Notes under the pieces: model-generated | Database searches by the model: none | What the model was told of the DNA's origin: nothing | Seen by the model: only the letters and a program-made list of their open reading frames with translations | Source: Escherichia phage vB_EcoM-Ro157lw | Sequence record: MH051335.1 | Direction: 5' to 3' (one strand) | Length of the DNA: 64,000 nt | Shown here: positions 4,416 through 60,501 of the stretch, piece after piece | How the letters are laid out: each line of letters starts with the position of its first letter | Position numbering within the stretch: the first letter of the stretch is position 1 | Program-made: the position numbers and the translations under genes

Positions 4416-4883
4416 TCAATATTTTAATAAGAAAGCGCCCAACCAACTCTCCTCAACCTCGCGGCCAGTAGCCACACGGTCGGTCTTTGCTATGGGCCTG
4501 GATTCGCCGCATGGCAATCCGTCTTGCAGTTGTGTACTATTGCCAATTCTCACCATGACCTTTCCATCAGGGTCGATATAAGCGCGACAACCCATTATTT
4601 CGAGTCGTTGTAGACACTGGCGAATCGTTTTCAGCCTTTCACCGGACCGGATAGAGCGCGGTCGCGACCTCTGACCGTTCTTATTCACTGTACGCTTGAA
4701 GACCGGAATCTCATTGGTGCGTTGCGCTTTCGGTCGGTAGTAGGCTTCCTCGCCAGGAGTCGCACCTGGTGTTAATTCTCGCTTGAGAGCCTTTTCAATA
4801 TCGATGATCATAATTATGCCGCTGCAGCGTAAACAATTGCATAAGCGATTCCAAACAGCGCGGCAATGCATACCGTGCCCCAA
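4416..4883 (-). CDS. hypothetical basic protein (start uncertain; TTG at 4883, ATG at 4871 or 4811)
   Basis: ORF track; no clear SD at any candidate start. Confidence 0.45.
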   Translation of the reverse strand: MGHGMHCRAVWNRLCNCLRCSGIIMIIDIEKALKRELTPGATPGEEAYYRPKAQRTNEIPVFKRTVNKNGQRSRPRSIRSGERLKTIRQCLQRLEIMGCRAYIDPDGKVMVRIGNSTQLQDGLPCGESRPIAKTDRVATGREVEESWLGAFLLKY

Positions 4884-4904
4884 AATGCAAAGCGTCGTGA
4901 CTCT

Positions 4905-5114
4905 TTATCCATTGTCCACCGCTCCAATATCCTTCAAGAACTTGTGCAAGTCGCCCTTCTTGTTAAGCTTTTGCATAGTTTTGATATCATCAAGTGATAT
5001 ACCTTGATCGCTTTGTTGTTTGTCAATGCAGACAATGCCGCCTTTCTTAGCCTTGATTGTCATGCCTTTGGCTTCAATACTTTTTACGAAATCGGACAAT
5101 AATTTAATTTCCAT
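4905..5114 (-). CDS. hypothetical protein
   Basis: ORF track; ATG overlaps upstream stop. Confidence 0.55.
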   Translation of the reverse strand: MEIKLLSDFVKSIEAKGMTIKAKKGGIVCIDKQQSDQGISLDDIKTMQKLNKKGDLHKFLKDIGAVDNG

Positions 5115-55305: not shown

Positions 55306-55631
55306 TATAACTCCACTACGCTTTCAAGGTCCAGATATACTGGAATAAAATGGCAATCTTCTTTTCGTTCAAACATCTCACCGTCAACGTGACTGAAGAA
55401 AACAGTCGTGTTTGGTATCTTCCACCCTTGCTCGTCTCGCACCAGGTACGCCATGGATTCAACAGGGATGTAAAGCGATACCGGATTTGCGGCAAAGATG
55501 AATTTGATTCTGTCTGGTTGACCCAGGAATCGCATAATTGTAAGACTTGAATTCAGTCTTGTATTAAGGAAGGACTCAACGATGCCGACGTGTGTTGCAC
55601 GTTCGCGTTGCTTCGTATCTTTTTCGTTCAT
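55305..55631 (-). CDS. hypothetical protein
   Basis: ORF track. Confidence 0.55.
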   Translation of the reverse strand: MNEKDTKQRERATHVGIVESFLNTRLNSSLTIMRFLGQPDRIKFIFAANPVSLYIPVESMAYLVRDEQGWKIPNTTVFFSHVDGEMFERKEDCHFIPVYLDLESVVEL

Positions 55632-55669
55632 TTCAGGCGACCTTTGTTAGTGCGGAAATATTTTTTGAT

Positions 55670-55698
55670 AGTATAATTGCAGATATAGTATAAAGCAA
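55670..55698 (-). promoter_or_regulatory. leftward sigma70-like promoter TTGCTT-N17-TATACT
   Basis: Hexamers read on the minus strand, ~30 nt upstream of the 55631 start. Confidence 0.4.
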
Positions 55699-55734
55699 AG
55701 TAAATCGAAATTGTGAACTAAATGGTAAATATTG

Positions 55735-55762
55735 TTGACTTTGCATCACTCAATATTATACT
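55735..55762 (+). promoter_or_regulatory. rightward sigma70-like promoter TTGACT-N16-TATACT
   Basis: Near-consensus hexamers upstream of 55792. Confidence 0.5.
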
Positions 55763-55791
55763 GCAGGTATTGATCACCGAAGGAAAGAAAG

Positions 55792-56874
55792 ATGGCTAGT
55801 TTAAGAGAAGAAGCAAAAATAATCGAAGAGTTTTTGACGGAACTCCAAAGAGGCATTCCAGAAGATGAACGCGTCATGACCGTGTTTGCGCCTGAAGCAA
55901 CGGTGCAGACCGACGAGCGCGGCAAAAAGATTAACAGCAGCTTCTGGCCTAAGCCTTGGAAGCTTGGCAAGCCGCTGATGCAACATCAGAACGGTTACGC
56001 CTGCATAAGTTCAATGCGTAAGTCTCCCAACCCAAAGACAGGCGAGATGCGATACTGGCGCACGGAATCGGCTTTCGGTCATGGCATGGCGATGATGGTC
56101 GACGACATCGGACACGGTAAAGGGTCAAAGGGCGATTTAGATTTGGAGTTCTTTTTCGAGCGCCTAAAACCAACCGTCATCGTCGAGACTTCGCCGAACA
56201 ACCATCAGCTGTGGTACTTCTTTAAAGAACCGATTGACCATCTTATTCAGTTCAAAGCATTCCTTGGGTCTTTCGTAAACATGGTACTCAAGAAGGGCGG
56301 CGACAACACGATTAAAGACGTGACGCGCGTGGGCCGTGTTCCTGGGTGCATCAACAACAAGCGTGTGACTCACGACGGCCCCTATAAATATGTCGATGAG
56401 AACGGCGACCCGTTCCGCTGCCGACTTGTCCATGCAGACTATTCCTTGCGCTACACAATCGAAGAGATTTGCCAAGCCTTCGGTTTCCACGTCGTTATGC
56501 CGCAAAAGCGTGAAATTCAAATCGACGTTGACGAATACAAATATGACGCTGTTTGGTATAAGATAGCCCAGCAAATCCTTGCGCGCAATAAGATGGGCGA
56601 AGGGTCAGATGGCGATGTGGTTGAAAACATGTCAGGTAAATGTCGCATCATCTGTCCTTGGGGTGAAGAGCACACCAACGGCGACCCATACGGCGCTTAT
56701 TTTCGCGGCCCAATCCCTGGCGCTGAACATGAATTCGTTTTCGGTTGCGCTCACGACTGTCACCGGAAAGGGGAAGGCAAGAAAGGATGGACCGCTTTTG
56801 TTGAAGCAGTAGTCATGCCTTATATTGAGAATCAACTTGATATGATAAATCGTCGCGCAGGTGGCATAAAATAG
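55792..56874 (+). CDS. primase-polymerase-like replication protein with Cys/His zinc-binding C-terminus (tentative)
   Basis: Acidic VDDIG and SPNNHQLWYF motifs; CPWGEEH...CAHDCH cluster; AAGGAAAG SD. Confidence 0.4.
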   Translation: MASLREEAKIIEEFLTELQRGIPEDERVMTVFAPEATVQTDERGKKINSSFWPKPWKLGKPLMQHQNGYACISSMRKSPNPKTGEMRYWRTESAFGHGMAMMVDDIGHGKGSKGDLDLEFFFERLKPTVIVETSPNNHQLWYFFKEPIDHLIQFKAFLGSFVNMVLKKGGDNTIKDVTRVGRVPGCINNKRVTHDGPYKYVDENGDPFRCRLVHADYSLRYTIEEICQAFGFHVVMPQKREIQIDVDEYKYDAVWYKIAQQILARNKMGEGSDGDVVENMSGKCRIICPWGEEHTNGDPYGAYFRGPIPGAEHEFVFGCAHDCHRKGEGKKGWTAFVEAVVMPYIENQLDMINRRAGGIK

Positions 56875-56875
56875 T

Positions 56876-56903
56876 TTGCTTTTATTTTTCTAGCAACTAT
56901 AAT
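56876..56903 (+). promoter_or_regulatory. sigma70-like promoter TTGCTT-N16-TATAAT
   Basis: Hexamers read directly. Confidence 0.4.
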
Positions 56904-56932
56904 CATTTTATGAACTGAAGCAGAGGTTATTT

Positions 56933-57079
56933 ATGCAAAGCGAAGAATTGAACATCGAGCTTGAAGGTCTGTTAAATTCGTTAGAACCTAAGCACGTAGA
57001 GCTTCCCACCCTTGAAGGTGTCATGGCTCACCACCAATCGGCTGCGGCCAAACAATACTCTGAATTTGTTAAGGAATAA
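56933..57079 (+). CDS. small hypothetical protein (48 aa); below ORF-track size cutoff
   Basis: ATG with AGAGG SD. Confidence 0.35.
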   Translation: MQSEELNIELEGLLNSLEPKHVELPTLEGVMAHHQSAAAKQYSEFVKE

Positions 57080-57081
57080 AA

Positions 57082-57372
57082 ATGAACGAACCAAAAATGA
57101 TGACCACTGAAGAAGCGCAAAAACTTCGCGTGGAGAACGAGCTGAAGCTTGTCAATGAAATTCTTCCTCTGTTTAAAGGCTATGCGGTTGAAGAAGTTGT
57201 TGGCGCAATCCTTAATGTTTCGACTCACGTGGCGATGAATCTGAATGCAGAGCGTTTCAATACTTTGCTGACGATTAACAACTTCACTGTCAGTGCAACG
57301 TTTACCGTTGAGCCAGTGAATTTTGAAGAAGCTGCAGCCGCGATTCAACAACGGCGAGATCAAGAGGTGTAG
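57082..57372 (+). CDS. hypothetical protein
   Basis: ORF track. Confidence 0.55.
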   Translation: MNEPKMMTTEEAQKLRVENELKLVNEILPLFKGYAVEEVVGAILNVSTHVAMNLNAERFNTLLTINNFTVSATFTVEPVNFEEAAAAIQQRRDQEV

Positions 57373-57373
57373 C

Positions 57374-57637
57374 ATGGGTGCTTTCCGCAACGAGTTTGTT
57401 TGGAACGTCACAAGCAGTCTTTCGACTTGTCCTAACTGTGCAAGCGATGTGATCAAGGTGCGGCAGCATCGCAATGCAGAGGAAGGTGCCTGGGAGGACG
57501 GCGACCTTGTAGAGTGCCAGTGTTGCTCTCACGAAGGCGTGGTGGAGCTTTACGCCGGAGAAGGTTGTCCACCAGCAGAACGTACAGCACGCGTTGAATG
57601 GGATGCGACAGACTCCATCGGTGATCCTCAACAGTAA
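57374..57637 (+). CDS. small Cys-rich (zinc-ribbon-like) protein
   Basis: CPNC...CQCC pattern; ATG at 57374 with GAGGTG SD. Confidence 0.5.
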   Translation: MGAFRNEFVWNVTSSLSTCPNCASDVIKVRQHRNAEEGAWEDGDLVECQCCSHEGVVELYAGEGCPPAERTARVEWDATDSIGDPQQ

Positions 57638-57649
57638 ATTTAGGTATAG

Positions 57650-57760
57650 ATGCATATGAAAGCCGTAAAGAAATACACATTAATCATTTCCCTTGTTATC
57701 ATCCTGGGGCTATTATATGTATTGGATATGGCATATTATTTGGCAGGGGTGAGTAAATGA
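57650..57760 (+). CDS. small hydrophobic peptide (36 aa, single TM); holin or membrane modulator candidate
   Basis: AGGT SD; hydrophobic core LIISLVIILGLLYVL; ATGA overlap with next gene. Confidence 0.3.
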   Translation: MHMKAVKKYTLIISLVIILGLLYVLDMAYYLAGVSK

Positions 57761-58047
57761 ATATTGTAATTCTTTATGGTGAGAATATCAGCGATGACGA
57801 CATCGAAGTTGCCGTTGATGTTTACGGTATCGATGAGGTGAAACGTGTTGAAGAAATTAATGGCTCAAATCTTAATGAGATTGCCAAAGAAGCTGGTTGC
57901 CCTTCGGAAGAGATTCTGGTGGTTACTAACGATGACCTGTCTTCTATGGATTGTTTGCGCCGCATCTTCACCGATTGCCAATACCTTCATTCTGTTCAGT
58001 CAGTAAACAAATTGAGAAAGGCATACGCTGACCAATTTCCTTGCTGA
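57757..58047 (+). CDS. hypothetical protein
   Basis: ORF track; GGGGTGAG SD. Confidence 0.55.
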   Translation: MNIVILYGENISDDDIEVAVDVYGIDEVKRVEEINGSNLNEIAKEAGCPSEEILVVTNDDLSSMDCLRRIFTDCQYLHSVQSVNKLRKAYADQFPC

Positions 58048-58097
58048 TAGTTCACCAGTTATATTGCTTTAAACTGAGTTTTACTATATTAATATAC

Positions 58098-58117
58098 AAC
58101 GCCAGATTTCTGGCGTT
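58098..58117 (+). terminator. intrinsic terminator (AACGCCAG/CTGGCGTT, loop ATTT, T-rich tail)
   Basis: Direct reading. Confidence 0.55.
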
Positions 58118-58183
58118 TATTTACCGCACCCTGAAAGGATATATCCATGCAACAATATAACAAAGCCGTATCAGGAGGATTAA

Positions 58184-59854
58184 ATGTCAATTGAACATGA
58201 CAATCTTCCAGAGGATACAGGTGATGAATTTGGTGCAATCTTTGACGAAATTCAAGACGCTGGTGTTTCAGAAGAGATGCAAGCGGCAGAGCAGCAAGGC
58301 ACCAGAGCTAAAATCAGCCTCCAGCATAAGGCTGTTGAGAAAGATGCAGAGCGCATGGAGTGCTACGGTGAAGAAGACTTGGTTGAAAGAGCACGTTTGC
58401 TCGCCTCACTTCAGGTAATCAAGTTCCCTCACTACAAACCGACGAAAGATGATTTTGTTCTTCAGGCGGACCGGACGAGTGACATGAACCGTTATGCGGT
58501 TTTCGACGCGTTGTTTGATAAGGGAAGCGGCATTGTCCCATTCCCTCACAAAGATACTTTTCGTGGACGCTTAGTCGACCATCGCGGCGAAACATTCACC
58601 GACCGGACGTTGGAAGTCACAGAGATAGTTGCCGCTGTAGACGCAGCAGGTCTGTCCAACCCAAACTCACGTCAGGTCGCTCAATCCTATAAGGAATGGG
58701 CTATGCGTTATCAGCGCGACGACCTGATGGACTTCTTCTACAAGAAGCTGCCTGAATGGGACGGTACTGCGCGCATTGAAAAATACCTTATCGAGCTATT
58801 CCGACCGTTCGATACAGAGTTAAACCGACAAATCGGTGTGTATTTTTGGCTATCGCTCTATAACCGCCTGACCAATCCTGGCTGTCAAGCGCCAATCTCC
58901 ATTGCGCTCATCGGCGGCCAGAACGCAGGGAAGAGTTATTTTAGTAAGCTGCTTTGCGAAGCTATTATGAACGACCGCCACGCAACACCGATTCCGTTGA
59001 ACTTGGCCGCGCAGAACTTCAACCCGTTCTTGCGAGCTATTACGGGTCGCTCAATTATCGCGAACGTTGGTGAGATGACAGGCTTTAAAAAGGCCGACAT
59101 CGAAAACATGAAAGCATTCCTGACTAAGACGGAAGATGACCTGGACTTCAAATTTGAAGATACGCAGGTTAAACCACGCCAGTGGATTGCTATCATGGAC
59201 GGCAACGAATACGCAGGCATGCAGCGTGACGATACGGGCAACCGTCGTGTGTATCCTATCTTTGTTGGCCAACTCGCCGACAAGGACGGGCAACCGAACT
59301 GGTCGAAAGACTTCCAAGCTGACCTTTCCACTTTGAAAGAAGACGTTTGGCAACTGATGGCTGAGTGTGCTGCGTGGATGGAGAAGCACGGCGAAGCAGG
59401 TTACAACGCGTTTGTCGGTGAAACATCTCGCATGCTTACTGAGTTCAGCAAGAACGAAATGGAACGCGCTCGCGGCGTTATCCGTGATGAGATGGTCGAC
59501 AACGACCTTGTTGAAGTCGTCATCACCGCGCCTTATGACCGACATCACAGCGGACGCTGGCACATCACCAGTGGTGCAATCGCTATGGGATTCAGAGCTA
59601 AGTGCGGCAAGTCGCCTTTCTCACGTACCCTTGCGCCGCACATGTCGAAGCTTGGATTTGAGCCTGCAACCTATCGCAACCAGCGTGGCTACTTTACGCC
59701 GCTGATTAAGAATGAAGCAGGGGAATACATTTCTGACTTGATGACTATCTTAGCGTATCTTATCCGCGACGAGTCTGACCCTGAAGATATTGAATTCTTG
59801 AAGAAGGTTATTGAACGCAAACGTTCTTTAGGAAGAGATAAGGATGAATTCTGA
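58184..59854 (+). CDS. VirE/D5-like P-loop NTPase (primase-helicase C-terminal type)
   Basis: Walker A GGQNAGKS; AGGAGG SD. Confidence 0.5.
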   Translation: MSIEHDNLPEDTGDEFGAIFDEIQDAGVSEEMQAAEQQGTRAKISLQHKAVEKDAERMECYGEEDLVERARLLASLQVIKFPHYKPTKDDFVLQADRTSDMNRYAVFDALFDKGSGIVPFPHKDTFRGRLVDHRGETFTDRTLEVTEIVAAVDAAGLSNPNSRQVAQSYKEWAMRYQRDDLMDFFYKKLPEWDGTARIEKYLIELFRPFDTELNRQIGVYFWLSLYNRLTNPGCQAPISIALIGGQNAGKSYFSKLLCEAIMNDRHATPIPLNLAAQNFNPFLRAITGRSIIANVGEMTGFKKADIENMKAFLTKTEDDLDFKFEDTQVKPRQWIAIMDGNEYAGMQRDDTGNRRVYPIFVGQLADKDGQPNWSKDFQADLSTLKEDVWQLMAECAAWMEKHGEAGYNAFVGETSRMLTEFSKNEMERARGVIRDEMVDNDLVEVVITAPYDRHHSGRWHITSGAIAMGFRAKCGKSPFSRTLAPHMSKLGFEPATYRNQRGYFTPLIKNEAGEYISDLMTILAYLIRDESDPEDIEFLKKVIERKRSLGRDKDEF

Positions 59855-60501
59855 TGAATAAAGCAATCAACATCGCTAAATTCTTTCAACATCTTGGTGA
59901 ACTGAACAAAGAGAGTGACGTTCACGGAGAAGAAATGAACCGGATGATTTCAACCGTGTTGCGTGGTTTTGGTTACGATAAGGACTCCATCAACTGTAAG
60001 CGCACGAAGCTTGTCGATGAGACATACCTTTACTATGTTGAATTGCGCGTAGGCAAAGATTTGATGATCATCGACCCAAAACTGGAAGGGGCGCACTGCT
60101 TTGGTGCTCACCCTCGTGCGAGTGAATTCAAGGGTCGCGGTCGCAACCGACTCCAGAAGCTTGATGATGCAGGCGACCTGAACATCTCGATGTTCCTCAA
60201 AGAGTTCCTTGCTCTGCCGAAGGTTGCATCTTCAACGGGCCGTGATGACCTGTGCAAGATTGGATTCAGAACTAAAGATTTGCGCAATGCGCTACGCAAG
60301 AAGGGATTTGTGCCTTCTTATGATAACGTCGCCGCGCTGATGGCTTCCATGGAGGAAGCTGAAGCAATGGACAAGGTGCGCGGCTATTTCCTGAATACAG
60401 GCTACACAATGTATGAGTGGCACACCAAAGGATTGACGGTCGCCGACTTCATCTATTCATTAGAGCAGAAGTATGTACGCAATATGCAGGCCACAGGATA
60501 A
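59854..60501 (+). CDS. hypothetical protein
   Basis: ORF track. Confidence 0.55.
   Translation: MNKAINIAKFFQHLGELNKESDVHGEEMNRMISTVLRGFGYDKDSINCKRTKLVDETYLYYVELRVGKDLMIIDPKLEGAHCFGAHPRASEFKGRGRNRLQKLDDAGDLNISMFLKEFLALPKVASSTGRDDLCKIGFRTKDLRNALRKKGFVPSYDNVAALMASMEEAEAMDKVRGYFLNTGYTMYEWHTKGLTVADFIYSLEQKYVRNMQATG

Follow-up and report, generated by a model that had tools for sequence, protein, structure and literature searches.

A putative 34-residue membrane peptide encoded in the primase operon of Wifcevirus phages

Does a gap of 119 nt between two genes of a phage replication operon hold a gene of its own, and if it does, what could so small a product be doing? The question is posed by Escherichia phage vB_EcoM-Ro157lw (record MH051335.1), of which a stretch of 64,000 nt was analyzed (hereafter the window, to which all coordinates refer unless another sequence is named). 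Between a gene for a Zn-ribbon protein, whose stop codon ends at 57637, and its neighbor, whose ATG begins at 57757, the gap is filled by an ATG open reading frame (ORF) of 36 codons on the forward strand (57650..57760), with the product MHMKAVKKYTLIISLVIILGLLYVLDMAYYLAGVSK. The original prediction for this site was an unannotated peptide of 36 residues with its own Shine-Dalgarno (SD) sequence and a single transmembrane (TM) core, overlapping the next start codon, and it had placed the ORF correctly in the 119-bp gap.

Operon context, start codon, and annotation

The window belongs to a Wifcevirus myophage: a query of 1.5 kb around the site had matches of 91-99% identity in 28 phage records, each from a Wifcevirus-type myophage of E. 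coli or Shigella, among them FEC19, ECML-117, WFH, WFC, Mansfield, vB_Eco4M-7, and the BASEL phages Bas98-101. The peptide gene is the fifth of six cistrons in a tightly packed rightward operon that opens with a RepB-type DNA primase of 360 aa (55792..56874, forward strand; Pfam PF16793, E=1.6e-36; PHROG 4861). Ahead of the primase lies a candidate sigma-70-like promoter (TTGACT-16-TATACT, 55735..55762, forward strand), a pattern match only, with 10/12 positions in agreement. The cistron just upstream of the peptide encodes the 87-aa Zn-ribbon protein (57374..57637, forward strand), identified from the ORF list and from Pfam and PHROG searches, and is under strong purifying selection (pS 0.39 vs pN 0.02). 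The last cistron, which we call the partner gene, encodes a 96-aa acidic protein (57757..58047, forward strand), an ORF whose model is a (beta-alpha)x4 Rossmann-like fold. The operon ends at an intrinsic-terminator hairpin with a T-rich tail (AACGCCAGA-TT-TCTGGCGTT, 58098..58124, forward strand), which is annotated as a terminator in WFH and lies in a region conserved even between genera. A VapE-like primase/helicase gene (58184-59854) follows 3′ of the operon, and then a long series of small hypothetical early genes. Because the peptide gene is cistron five of six in a rightward early operon, its expression is probably early.

The predicted length of 36 residues stands only in part, since an ATG ORF of 36 codons is present in the window but the conserved start gives 34 residues. 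The upstream in-frame ATG (57650..57652, forward strand), four nt after the SD, is unique to the window and reads ATA in all 17 aligned relatives, so it is probably not a start codon. The ATG at 57656, 10 nt after the SD, is invariant in the alignment of 18 genomes. Because the first ATG occurs only in the window and the second is invariant, translation probably starts at 57656 and yields 34 residues (MKAVKK...GVSK). The corresponding coding sequence, 57656..57760 on the forward strand (MKAVKKYTLIISLVIILGLLYVLDMAYYLAGVSK), draws on the conserved ATG, on annotated relatives, and on homologs. The SD claimed for the peptide is there: an SD-like AGGT (57642..57645, forward strand), also invariant in the 18 genomes, is annotated as the ribosome-binding site (RBS) of CPT_Mansfield_080, and its spacing of 10-11 nt to the conserved start is longer than optimal.

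At the other end, the TGA of the peptide lies within an ATGA (57757..57760, forward strand) that also holds the start codon of the partner gene, confirming the predicted overlap. The motif reads GTGA in EC150 and ATGA in Pantoea phage PA1 and in the near-identical contig L021. Such an overlap is not special in itself, because genes in this genome ordinarily meet in a four-nt overlap (at least 16 such junctions in the listed part of Bas101). An SD-like AGGGGTG for the partner gene (57745..57751, forward strand) sits inside the last codons of the peptide; it is annotated as an RBS in Mansfield and conserved as TTGGCAGGG in L022, a metagenomic contig from Logan. Translational coupling of the peptide to its partner is plausible on sequence grounds, because of the ATGA overlap and the position of the partner SD within these last codons.

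The description of the peptide as unannotated does not hold. The exact 34-aa protein is deposited in GenBank as QEG09905.1 (CPT_Mansfield_080, UniRef100_A0A5B9NAP8), and a variant identical at 33/34 residues as WFC_00078 (YP_009823631.1), each named "hypothetical protein." Both are the same gene, with the same position and the same overlap, and their records carry neither a function nor a TM note; only the window has the extra, non-conserved upstream ATG that extends the frame to 36 codons. Several annotators have called the gene independently, with an RBS, and it is present in the annotations of Mansfield, RCIP0363, Bas98-101, kaset, vB_Eco4M-7n, and WFC. It was missed in EC150, F13, RCIP0319, WFH RefSeq, vB_Eco4M-7, CWP003, and SP13. 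The suggestion that such peptides slip below size cutoffs is borne out here, as about half of the related GenBank records omit the gene and it is uncalled on the diverged contig L022. For the annotation, the start would be moved to 57656 and the gene added to about half of the Wifcevirus records and to L022-type contigs.

Conservation inside and outside the genus

Within Wifcevirus, the peptide ORF is intact in 27 of the 28 records, and the products differ there by at most one residue. The variable codons number five: V14 (GTT/GTC/GTA) and S33 (AGT/AGC) by synonymous changes only, I16T and Y27H each as a singleton, and K34 (AAA/AAG/GGA), the last codon, where K34G dominates. This near-invariance proves little about coding constraint. 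The whole block 57640-58183 has a pS of ~0.04-0.05 in both the peptide and the partner gene when compared with WFC, and within-genus dN/dS is therefore without power as proof of coding; in the same comparison the neighbors have a pS of 0.39 (Zn-ribbon gene), 0.55 (orf96a), and 0.25 (VapE-like gene). Beyond the partner gene, 136 nt of intergenic DNA contain a single variable site among 18 genomes. The low diversity of the block looks like a recent sweep rather than deep nucleotide constraint, because over greater distances its proteins diverge quickly, the partner being only 44% identical.

What is decisive for a gene, as far as sequence comparison can decide it, is the evidence from lineages outside the genus and not the identity within it. 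When ~15 billion proteins were searched exhaustively by HMMER with the 96-aa partner as query, no more than three lineages turned up, all of them Wifce/Kyle-like, and matches of the partner to DUF285/LRR repeats in that search were spurious. A word-indexed search with a peptide profile returned WFC-type and PA1-type proteins only, and scans of viral contigs and of metagenome contigs yielded only further Wifcevirus genomes and Pantoea phage Kyle itself. By these searches the peptide family is very small, consisting of Wifcevirus, Kylevirus, and one metagenomic lineage, and with three lineages in so tiny a family the power of comparison is limited.

The metagenomic lineage is represented by L022, which carries the same operon, with a primase 81% identical and the 44% identical partner. 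Its uncalled 119-nt gap holds an ATG..TAG ORF of 33 aa (MEKVKKTLFLISLFSVIGLLYLSDVSYLYLAGW) behind a TAAGGT SD, separated from the partner gene by a 4-nt spacer instead of the ATGA. The two peptides share 17/32 residues (53% identity), with one in-frame 3-nt indel. Nucleotide identity at the first, second, and third codon positions is 19, 26, and 19 of 32, so that second positions are the most conserved, a signature of maintained hydrophobic residues. With a pS of 0.50, a pN of 0.28, and a JC dN/dS of ~0.4 (neighbors, 0.07-0.2), the constraint on the peptide appears only moderate.

In PA1 and L021, the same position is occupied by an ORF of 72-73 aa with two hydrophobic segments, ATGA-coupled to a homologous partner. 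The PA1 homolog is a 73-aa ORF in the primase operon (2283-2504 of sequence L006), and the peptide aligns to the N-terminal stretch of its product (..TVKKYLLFVALTSLLALFYCWDKAV..) at a BLASTP E value of 8e-6. The observed score was reached by 0/20,000 shuffles in register and 0/2,000 with best local alignment, and the BLOSUM score is 53 in frame, whereas the other frames, interrupted by stops, score 27 and 30. Identity by codon position is 15, 19, and 18 of 28 in this pair, in which third positions are not less conserved. L021 differs from the PA1 homolog by five non-synonymous and no synonymous changes and is too similar to inform. We group these ORFs as a "VKK-TM-D" family, joined by sequence homology and by synteny, each lying directly upstream of, and coupled to, a gene for a Rossmann-like protein of 96-99 aa in the primase operon.

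These comparisons bear on whether the frame is a gene at all, or a chance opening in DNA that is conserved at the nucleotide level, either as a regulatory or RNA element or as a swept recombination block. The block 57640-58183 is indeed almost without synonymous divergence in the genus, and the hairpin region after it is conserved between genera. By our own estimate, the chance of a 34-codon open frame in such sequence is ~0.1-0.2, and AT-rich DNA between genes readily gives rise to hydrophobic ORFs (PMC11188072). However, in three diverged lineages this frame, and not the others, is open, the indel keeps the frame, the similarity to PA1 resides in this frame, and an SD precedes the ORF in both the window and L022. 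A conserved element would also sit poorly with a gap that has neither an Rfam family nor a significant fold, next to a partner that diverges so far at depth. We consider a chance frame very unlikely, and the ORF is, with high probability, a real protein-coding gene.

Being real does not make the gene indispensable. In Kyle, the homologous DNA is recognizable, but the start codon and most of the hydrophobicity are lost, and in AV128 an extra A (+1) after codon 6 breaks the peptide frame; both phages keep the partner gene. A frame that is kept open in three lineages and lost in one or two phages that retain the partner suggests a real gene that is accessory rather than essential. Two annotations in these phages could be mistaken for fusions of peptide and partner. 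The 130-aa CDS of AV128 results from the +1 A insertion together with the TAA>TGG variant of its clade, and its N-terminal 34 residues are out-of-frame junk. The N-terminal extension of Kyle_91, which might be taken for a fused TM segment, is not hydrophobic and stems from a TTG mis-start; the conserved ATG is the real start.

The predicted membrane helix and the class of the peptide

The hydrophobic TM core covers codons 7-23 (YTLIISLVIILGLLYVL, 57674..57724, forward strand), with K2, K5, and K6 before it and the conserved D24 after it. Its best Kyte-Doolittle 19-mer (residues 8-26) scores 2.43, ranking second among the 279 short ATG ORFs in the six frames of the window, and the Hessa-scale sum of the 17-mer YTLIISLVIILGLLYVL is ~-2.9 kcal/mol, an approximate value. 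The AlphaFold2 model is one uninterrupted helix over residues 2-29 (pLDDT 88.5), with no domain beyond it. These results supply the TM prediction that had been proposed as a check, and they bear out the strongly hydrophobic core and the single TM segment. In length and hydrophobicity the peptide falls among the small single-pass inner-membrane proteins (≤50 aa, one spanning helix). Because the helix is preceded by three lysines and followed by a tail rich in Asp and Tyr, the positive-inside rule predicts an N-in/C-out topology; the charge bias and its VKK...D pattern are kept in L022 and PA1. Across the 34-aa, 33-aa, and 73-aa versions, conservation covers the basic N-terminus, TM helix 1, and the Asp that comes next, but no soluble domain.

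Neither the window peptide nor its counterparts in L022 and PA1 matched anything in Pfam, PHROGs, NCBIfam, or PADLOC. Several known classes can be set aside. A lipoprotein, an o-spanin, or a secreted peptide does not fit, as there is no Cys and hence no lipobox, and since only ~10 residues follow the hydrophobic core, the core is not a signal peptide. A replication organizer like phi29 p16.7 is not supported either, the peptide having no domain beyond the AlphaFold2 helix.

The layout of the peptide, with a basic N-terminus, one TM segment, and a short polar tail, resembles TisB-, Fst-, and Ldr-type toxins and the smallest holins. TisB, Fst, Ldr, Hok, and Ibs are type I toxins with one hydrophobic helix and charged ends, and the similarity in length, helix, and ends raises the idea of a membrane-damaging peptide, whether toxin-, holin-, or antiholin-like, that serves host shut-off or lysis timing. 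The very short latent period reported for Wifcevirus (PMC11990801) would suit such an activity. The gene, however, is an SD-driven internal cistron, embedded in an operon and coupled by ATGA, and not a stand-alone locus, and an Rfam search of 55500-60000 (E<=1) returned no family, hence no type I antitoxin-like or antisense RNA; no structured leader was found either. With a normal SD and a place in an early replication operon, a pore former made so soon would be self-defeating. No holin family of Pfam or PHROG matched at E<=0.1, and the location is not that of a lysis cassette: in Bas101, 17 kb separate the peptide gene from the spanin genes, which are on the opposite strand, and the lysis genes of PA1 (ORF11-16) are at another locus. 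Membrane damage is the least probable of the explanations considered here. The published lysis-related protein of PA1, PA1-LRP (PMC11538084), is likewise small, hydrophobic, and labeled "hypothetical" in a related phage, and it damages membranes when overexpressed, but it is a different gene and no homolog of the peptide: it is ORF13, adjoining the endolysin, and its cloning primer starts ATGGTAAGGCGC.

The partner gene and the likely mode of action

The tight junction with the partner gene could mean that only the act of translating the ORF matters, with ribosomes unmasking the SD and AUG of the partner by termination and reinitiation and the product itself being functionless. The stop of the peptide overlaps the downstream start in the window and PA1 (ATGA) or lies 4 nt from it in L022, and termination-reinitiation coupling is well established, as cited in a passage of PMC11188072. 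Moreover, the partner RBS is predicted to be mostly paired with the body of the peptide ORF, with a probability of being unpaired of 0.22-0.28 in the window, WFC, and PA1 (0.28 in the window), lower than at most gene starts. Yet this masking is suggestive without standing out statistically, at the 12th-16th percentile of the 69 gene starts for the window and with fold z-scores of -0.8 to -1.7, which are not significant. The partner also has an SD of its own, and in L022 its AUG pairs downstream instead. A pure leader would have no reason to retain a basic N-terminus, a TM segment, and an Asp across ~50% divergence, and it would not give rise to conservation of second codon positions or to the two-TM, 73-aa version of PA1. 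These retained features and the excess of pS over pN against L022 are moderate evidence that the peptide sequence is not unconstrained, and because the sequence pattern of the peptide is retained across lineages, a pure leader role is a minor rival, to which we give only a small chance.

The nature of the partner could in principle reveal what the peptide does. Its model is a small (beta-alpha)x4 Rossmann-like domain (pLDDT 77), for which Foldseek returned generic matches only, namely de novo Rossmann designs, CheY-like folds, and small Toprim folds (best E=9.5e-3), and a sequence search of the PDB gave no relative with a solved structure. An assignment to Toprim is doubtful, as the Glu after beta-1 is not conserved. 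The note in the Mansfield record that describes the partner as a primase similar to RSF1010 RepB was not reproduced and was probably misplaced from the 360-aa primase.

One could nevertheless picture a two-gene module in which the peptide anchors or regulates the co-translated acidic partner at the inner membrane, where the pair might, for instance, tether or organize the RepB-primase/VapE-helicase replication machinery. The two genes are adjacent and coupled in all three lineages, both lie inside a replication operon, and the basic MKAVKK N-terminus would face a very acidic partner; membrane-anchored phage replication has a precedent in phi29 p16.7 and p1 (PMC4974454). These are, like the peptide, early membrane or membrane-associated proteins encoded with replication functions. 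They differ in that p16.7 joins its N-terminal TM segment to a cytoplasmic domain that binds DNA and terminal protein (TP), whereas the peptide has no cytoplasmic domain and no homology to it, and in that phi29 infects Gram-positive hosts and uses protein-primed replication (PMC4974454). Against tethering, an N-in topology would leave only ~6 cytoplasmic residues, little surface for a soluble partner, and the partner is intact in Kyle and AV128, in which the peptide is degraded or frameshifted. The partner fold, with its weak generic matches, also comes without a DNA-binding or replication assignment, and we regard this module as unlikely.

A broader version would be a two-part early membrane module of Wifcevirus and Kylevirus, previously undescribed, that either anchors the replisome or neutralizes a membrane-acting defense of the host or of cryptic prophages. 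Wifceviruses are restricted by cryptic prophages of E. coli K-12 (PMC11990801). We think this proposal improbable. If the replisome were anchored nearby, the conserved hairpin (58098-58117) might also serve as a primase recognition site of the ssi/ori-like kind.

The explanation that we favor, and that we hold to be reasonably probable, is that the ORF encodes a real 34-aa early, N-in, single-pass accessory peptide of the inner membrane that acts within the membrane. Synthesized early from the primase operon, with translation running straight through the ATGA into the start codon of the partner, the peptide would insert into the host inner membrane as a single alpha-helix, its lysine-rich N-terminus (MKAVKK) in the cytoplasm and its short Asp/Tyr-rich tail at the periplasmic face. 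There its helix might contact a helix of some integral membrane protein, either one from the host or one made by the phage. An action inside the membrane is suggested because what is conserved is limited to the basic N-terminus, the first TM helix, and the Asp, with no soluble domain; we put forward this specific mode, acting on an integral membrane protein, as a tentative proposal drawn from analogy. The peptide could then function like the small membrane-protein regulators of bacteria or like early exclusion and host-takeover factors of phages.

Both analogies rest on familiar systems. AcrZ, MgtS, MgrB, and CydX of E. coli have 30-50 aa, a single TM segment, and no soluble domain, bind a larger membrane protein, and were often missed by size cutoffs. 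The peptide is like them in size, in its single TM segment, and in the absence of a soluble domain, but it has no sequence similarity to them, is phage encoded, and lies in a replication operon. Imm and Sp of phage T4 are early inner-membrane proteins of ~80-100 aa for superinfection exclusion and host takeover. With these the peptide would share early expression, location in the inner membrane, accessory status, restriction to a lineage, and ease of loss; they are larger and have no homology to it.

As a single gene, the ORF matters little, being of an ordinary kind for a phage early region, where small hydrophobic genes are common, and already deposited as hypothetical. It does provide a clean example of a phage micro-protein family validated by comparison, with one-TM and two-TM versions. 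The peptide is also a tractable target, in a genus whose members are candidate agents for biocontrol and phage therapy: a synthetic-genome and HiBiT platform exists for vB_Eco4M-7, in which HiBiT tagging of the RepB-type primase (gp86) and of a 556-aa primase (gp91), both flanking the peptide gene, gave viable phage for a luminescence detection assay (PMC11074155). If the peptide does bind a host membrane protein, it would join the few intramembrane effectors that phages are known to encode.

A low-divergence block and its hairpin

Synonymous divergence among 18 Wifcevirus genomes was strongly suppressed across positions 57640-58183, with a pS of ~0.04-0.05 for the predicted single-TM peptide gene (57656-57760, plus strand) and the 96-aa partner gene that it overlaps (57757-58047, plus strand), versus 0.25-0.55 for the flanking genes. 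The pN/pS of the 96-aa gene was ~0.9. Since the 96-aa protein shares only 44% identity with its counterpart in L022, a diverged metagenomic contig with the same operon, the block looks like the trace of a recent recombination sweep rather than of deep nucleotide constraint.

The intergenic region inside this block (58048-58183) has a single variable site in the 18 genomes and contains a hairpin at 58098-58117 that carries a terminator annotation. The stem, (A)CGCCAG-loop-CTGGCG(T), is also kept in L022 and in the Pantoea phages PA1 and Kyle, as are its conserved flanks, TTAATAATA and TTTATTTACC; Kyle shows a single compensatory change from C-G to T-A, and the loops differ among the phages compared (our window, L022, PA1, and Kyle). 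Judged from these sequences, conservation at the hairpin region exceeds the needs of a plain terminator, and for that reason the region could additionally act as a primase-recognition (ssi/ori-like) or regulatory site.

Gene calls and annotations around the peptide

Two annotated ORFs near the peptide are questionable. The 39-aa TTG ORF at 58041-58160 (plus strand), a CDS in the Bas98-101 and kaset annotations, reads straight through the terminator hairpin and is probably a spurious gene call. In the WFH RefSeq annotation, a 75-aa minus-strand ORF, gp074 (57453-57680), is given in place of two plus-strand features, the Zn-ribbon gene and the peptide; this call is very likely wrong, since substitution patterns in the plus-strand Zn-ribbon frame (pS 0.39, pN 0.02) point to strong purifying selection.

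The Mansfield annotation names the 96-aa partner (CPT_Mansfield_081) "DNA primase" and cites an HHpred match to RSF1010 RepB (3H25_A). Searching the PDB sequences with a profile of the partner gave no match (best E = 1.4), and the fold predicted for it is that of a small, generic Rossmann-like domain. The RepB note probably belongs to the 360-aa RepB-type primase, the first cistron of the operon (55792-56874, plus strand).

The peptide gene in related phages

In EC150, the last peptide codon is AAG, where our window has AAA, so that the partner starts with GTG (position 1458 of L013, equivalent to 57757) and the overlap becomes GTGA. The stop/start overlap architecture thus persists in this phage despite the changed start codon. 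In phage AV128, an annotated 130-aa CDS (L007, 1399-1791) enters the partner gene from an out-of-frame peptide reading and arises from an additional A in AAAGAAA(A), after peptide codon 6, together with the TAA-to-TGG change of its clade; the +1 A could be a sequencing error; otherwise it naturally inactivates the peptide gene and at the same time extends the partner N-terminally.

In Kyle, the peptide gene survives only as a degraded copy (L005, 2319-2500) that lacks a start codon and has lowered hydrophobicity. The annotated start of KYLE_91 is a TTG at 2435, with the conserved ATG at 2501, and the minus-strand KYLE_90 call upstream of it looks doubtful. In L022, a 33-aa homolog (2895-2996) was missed by the gene finder, leaving a seemingly "empty" gap of 119 nt, which is a direct illustration of the size cut-off problem.

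A second hydrophobic mini-ORF

A very hydrophobic mini-ORF at 4814-4912 (minus strand), encoding 32 aa from its ATG (MDKESRRFAFWGTVCIAALFGIAYAIVYAAAA), is squeezed between two minus-strand genes. Judged by genome offset, it is probably the 32-aa Bas101_0103, and it may represent a second small membrane peptide of vB_EcoM-Ro157lw.
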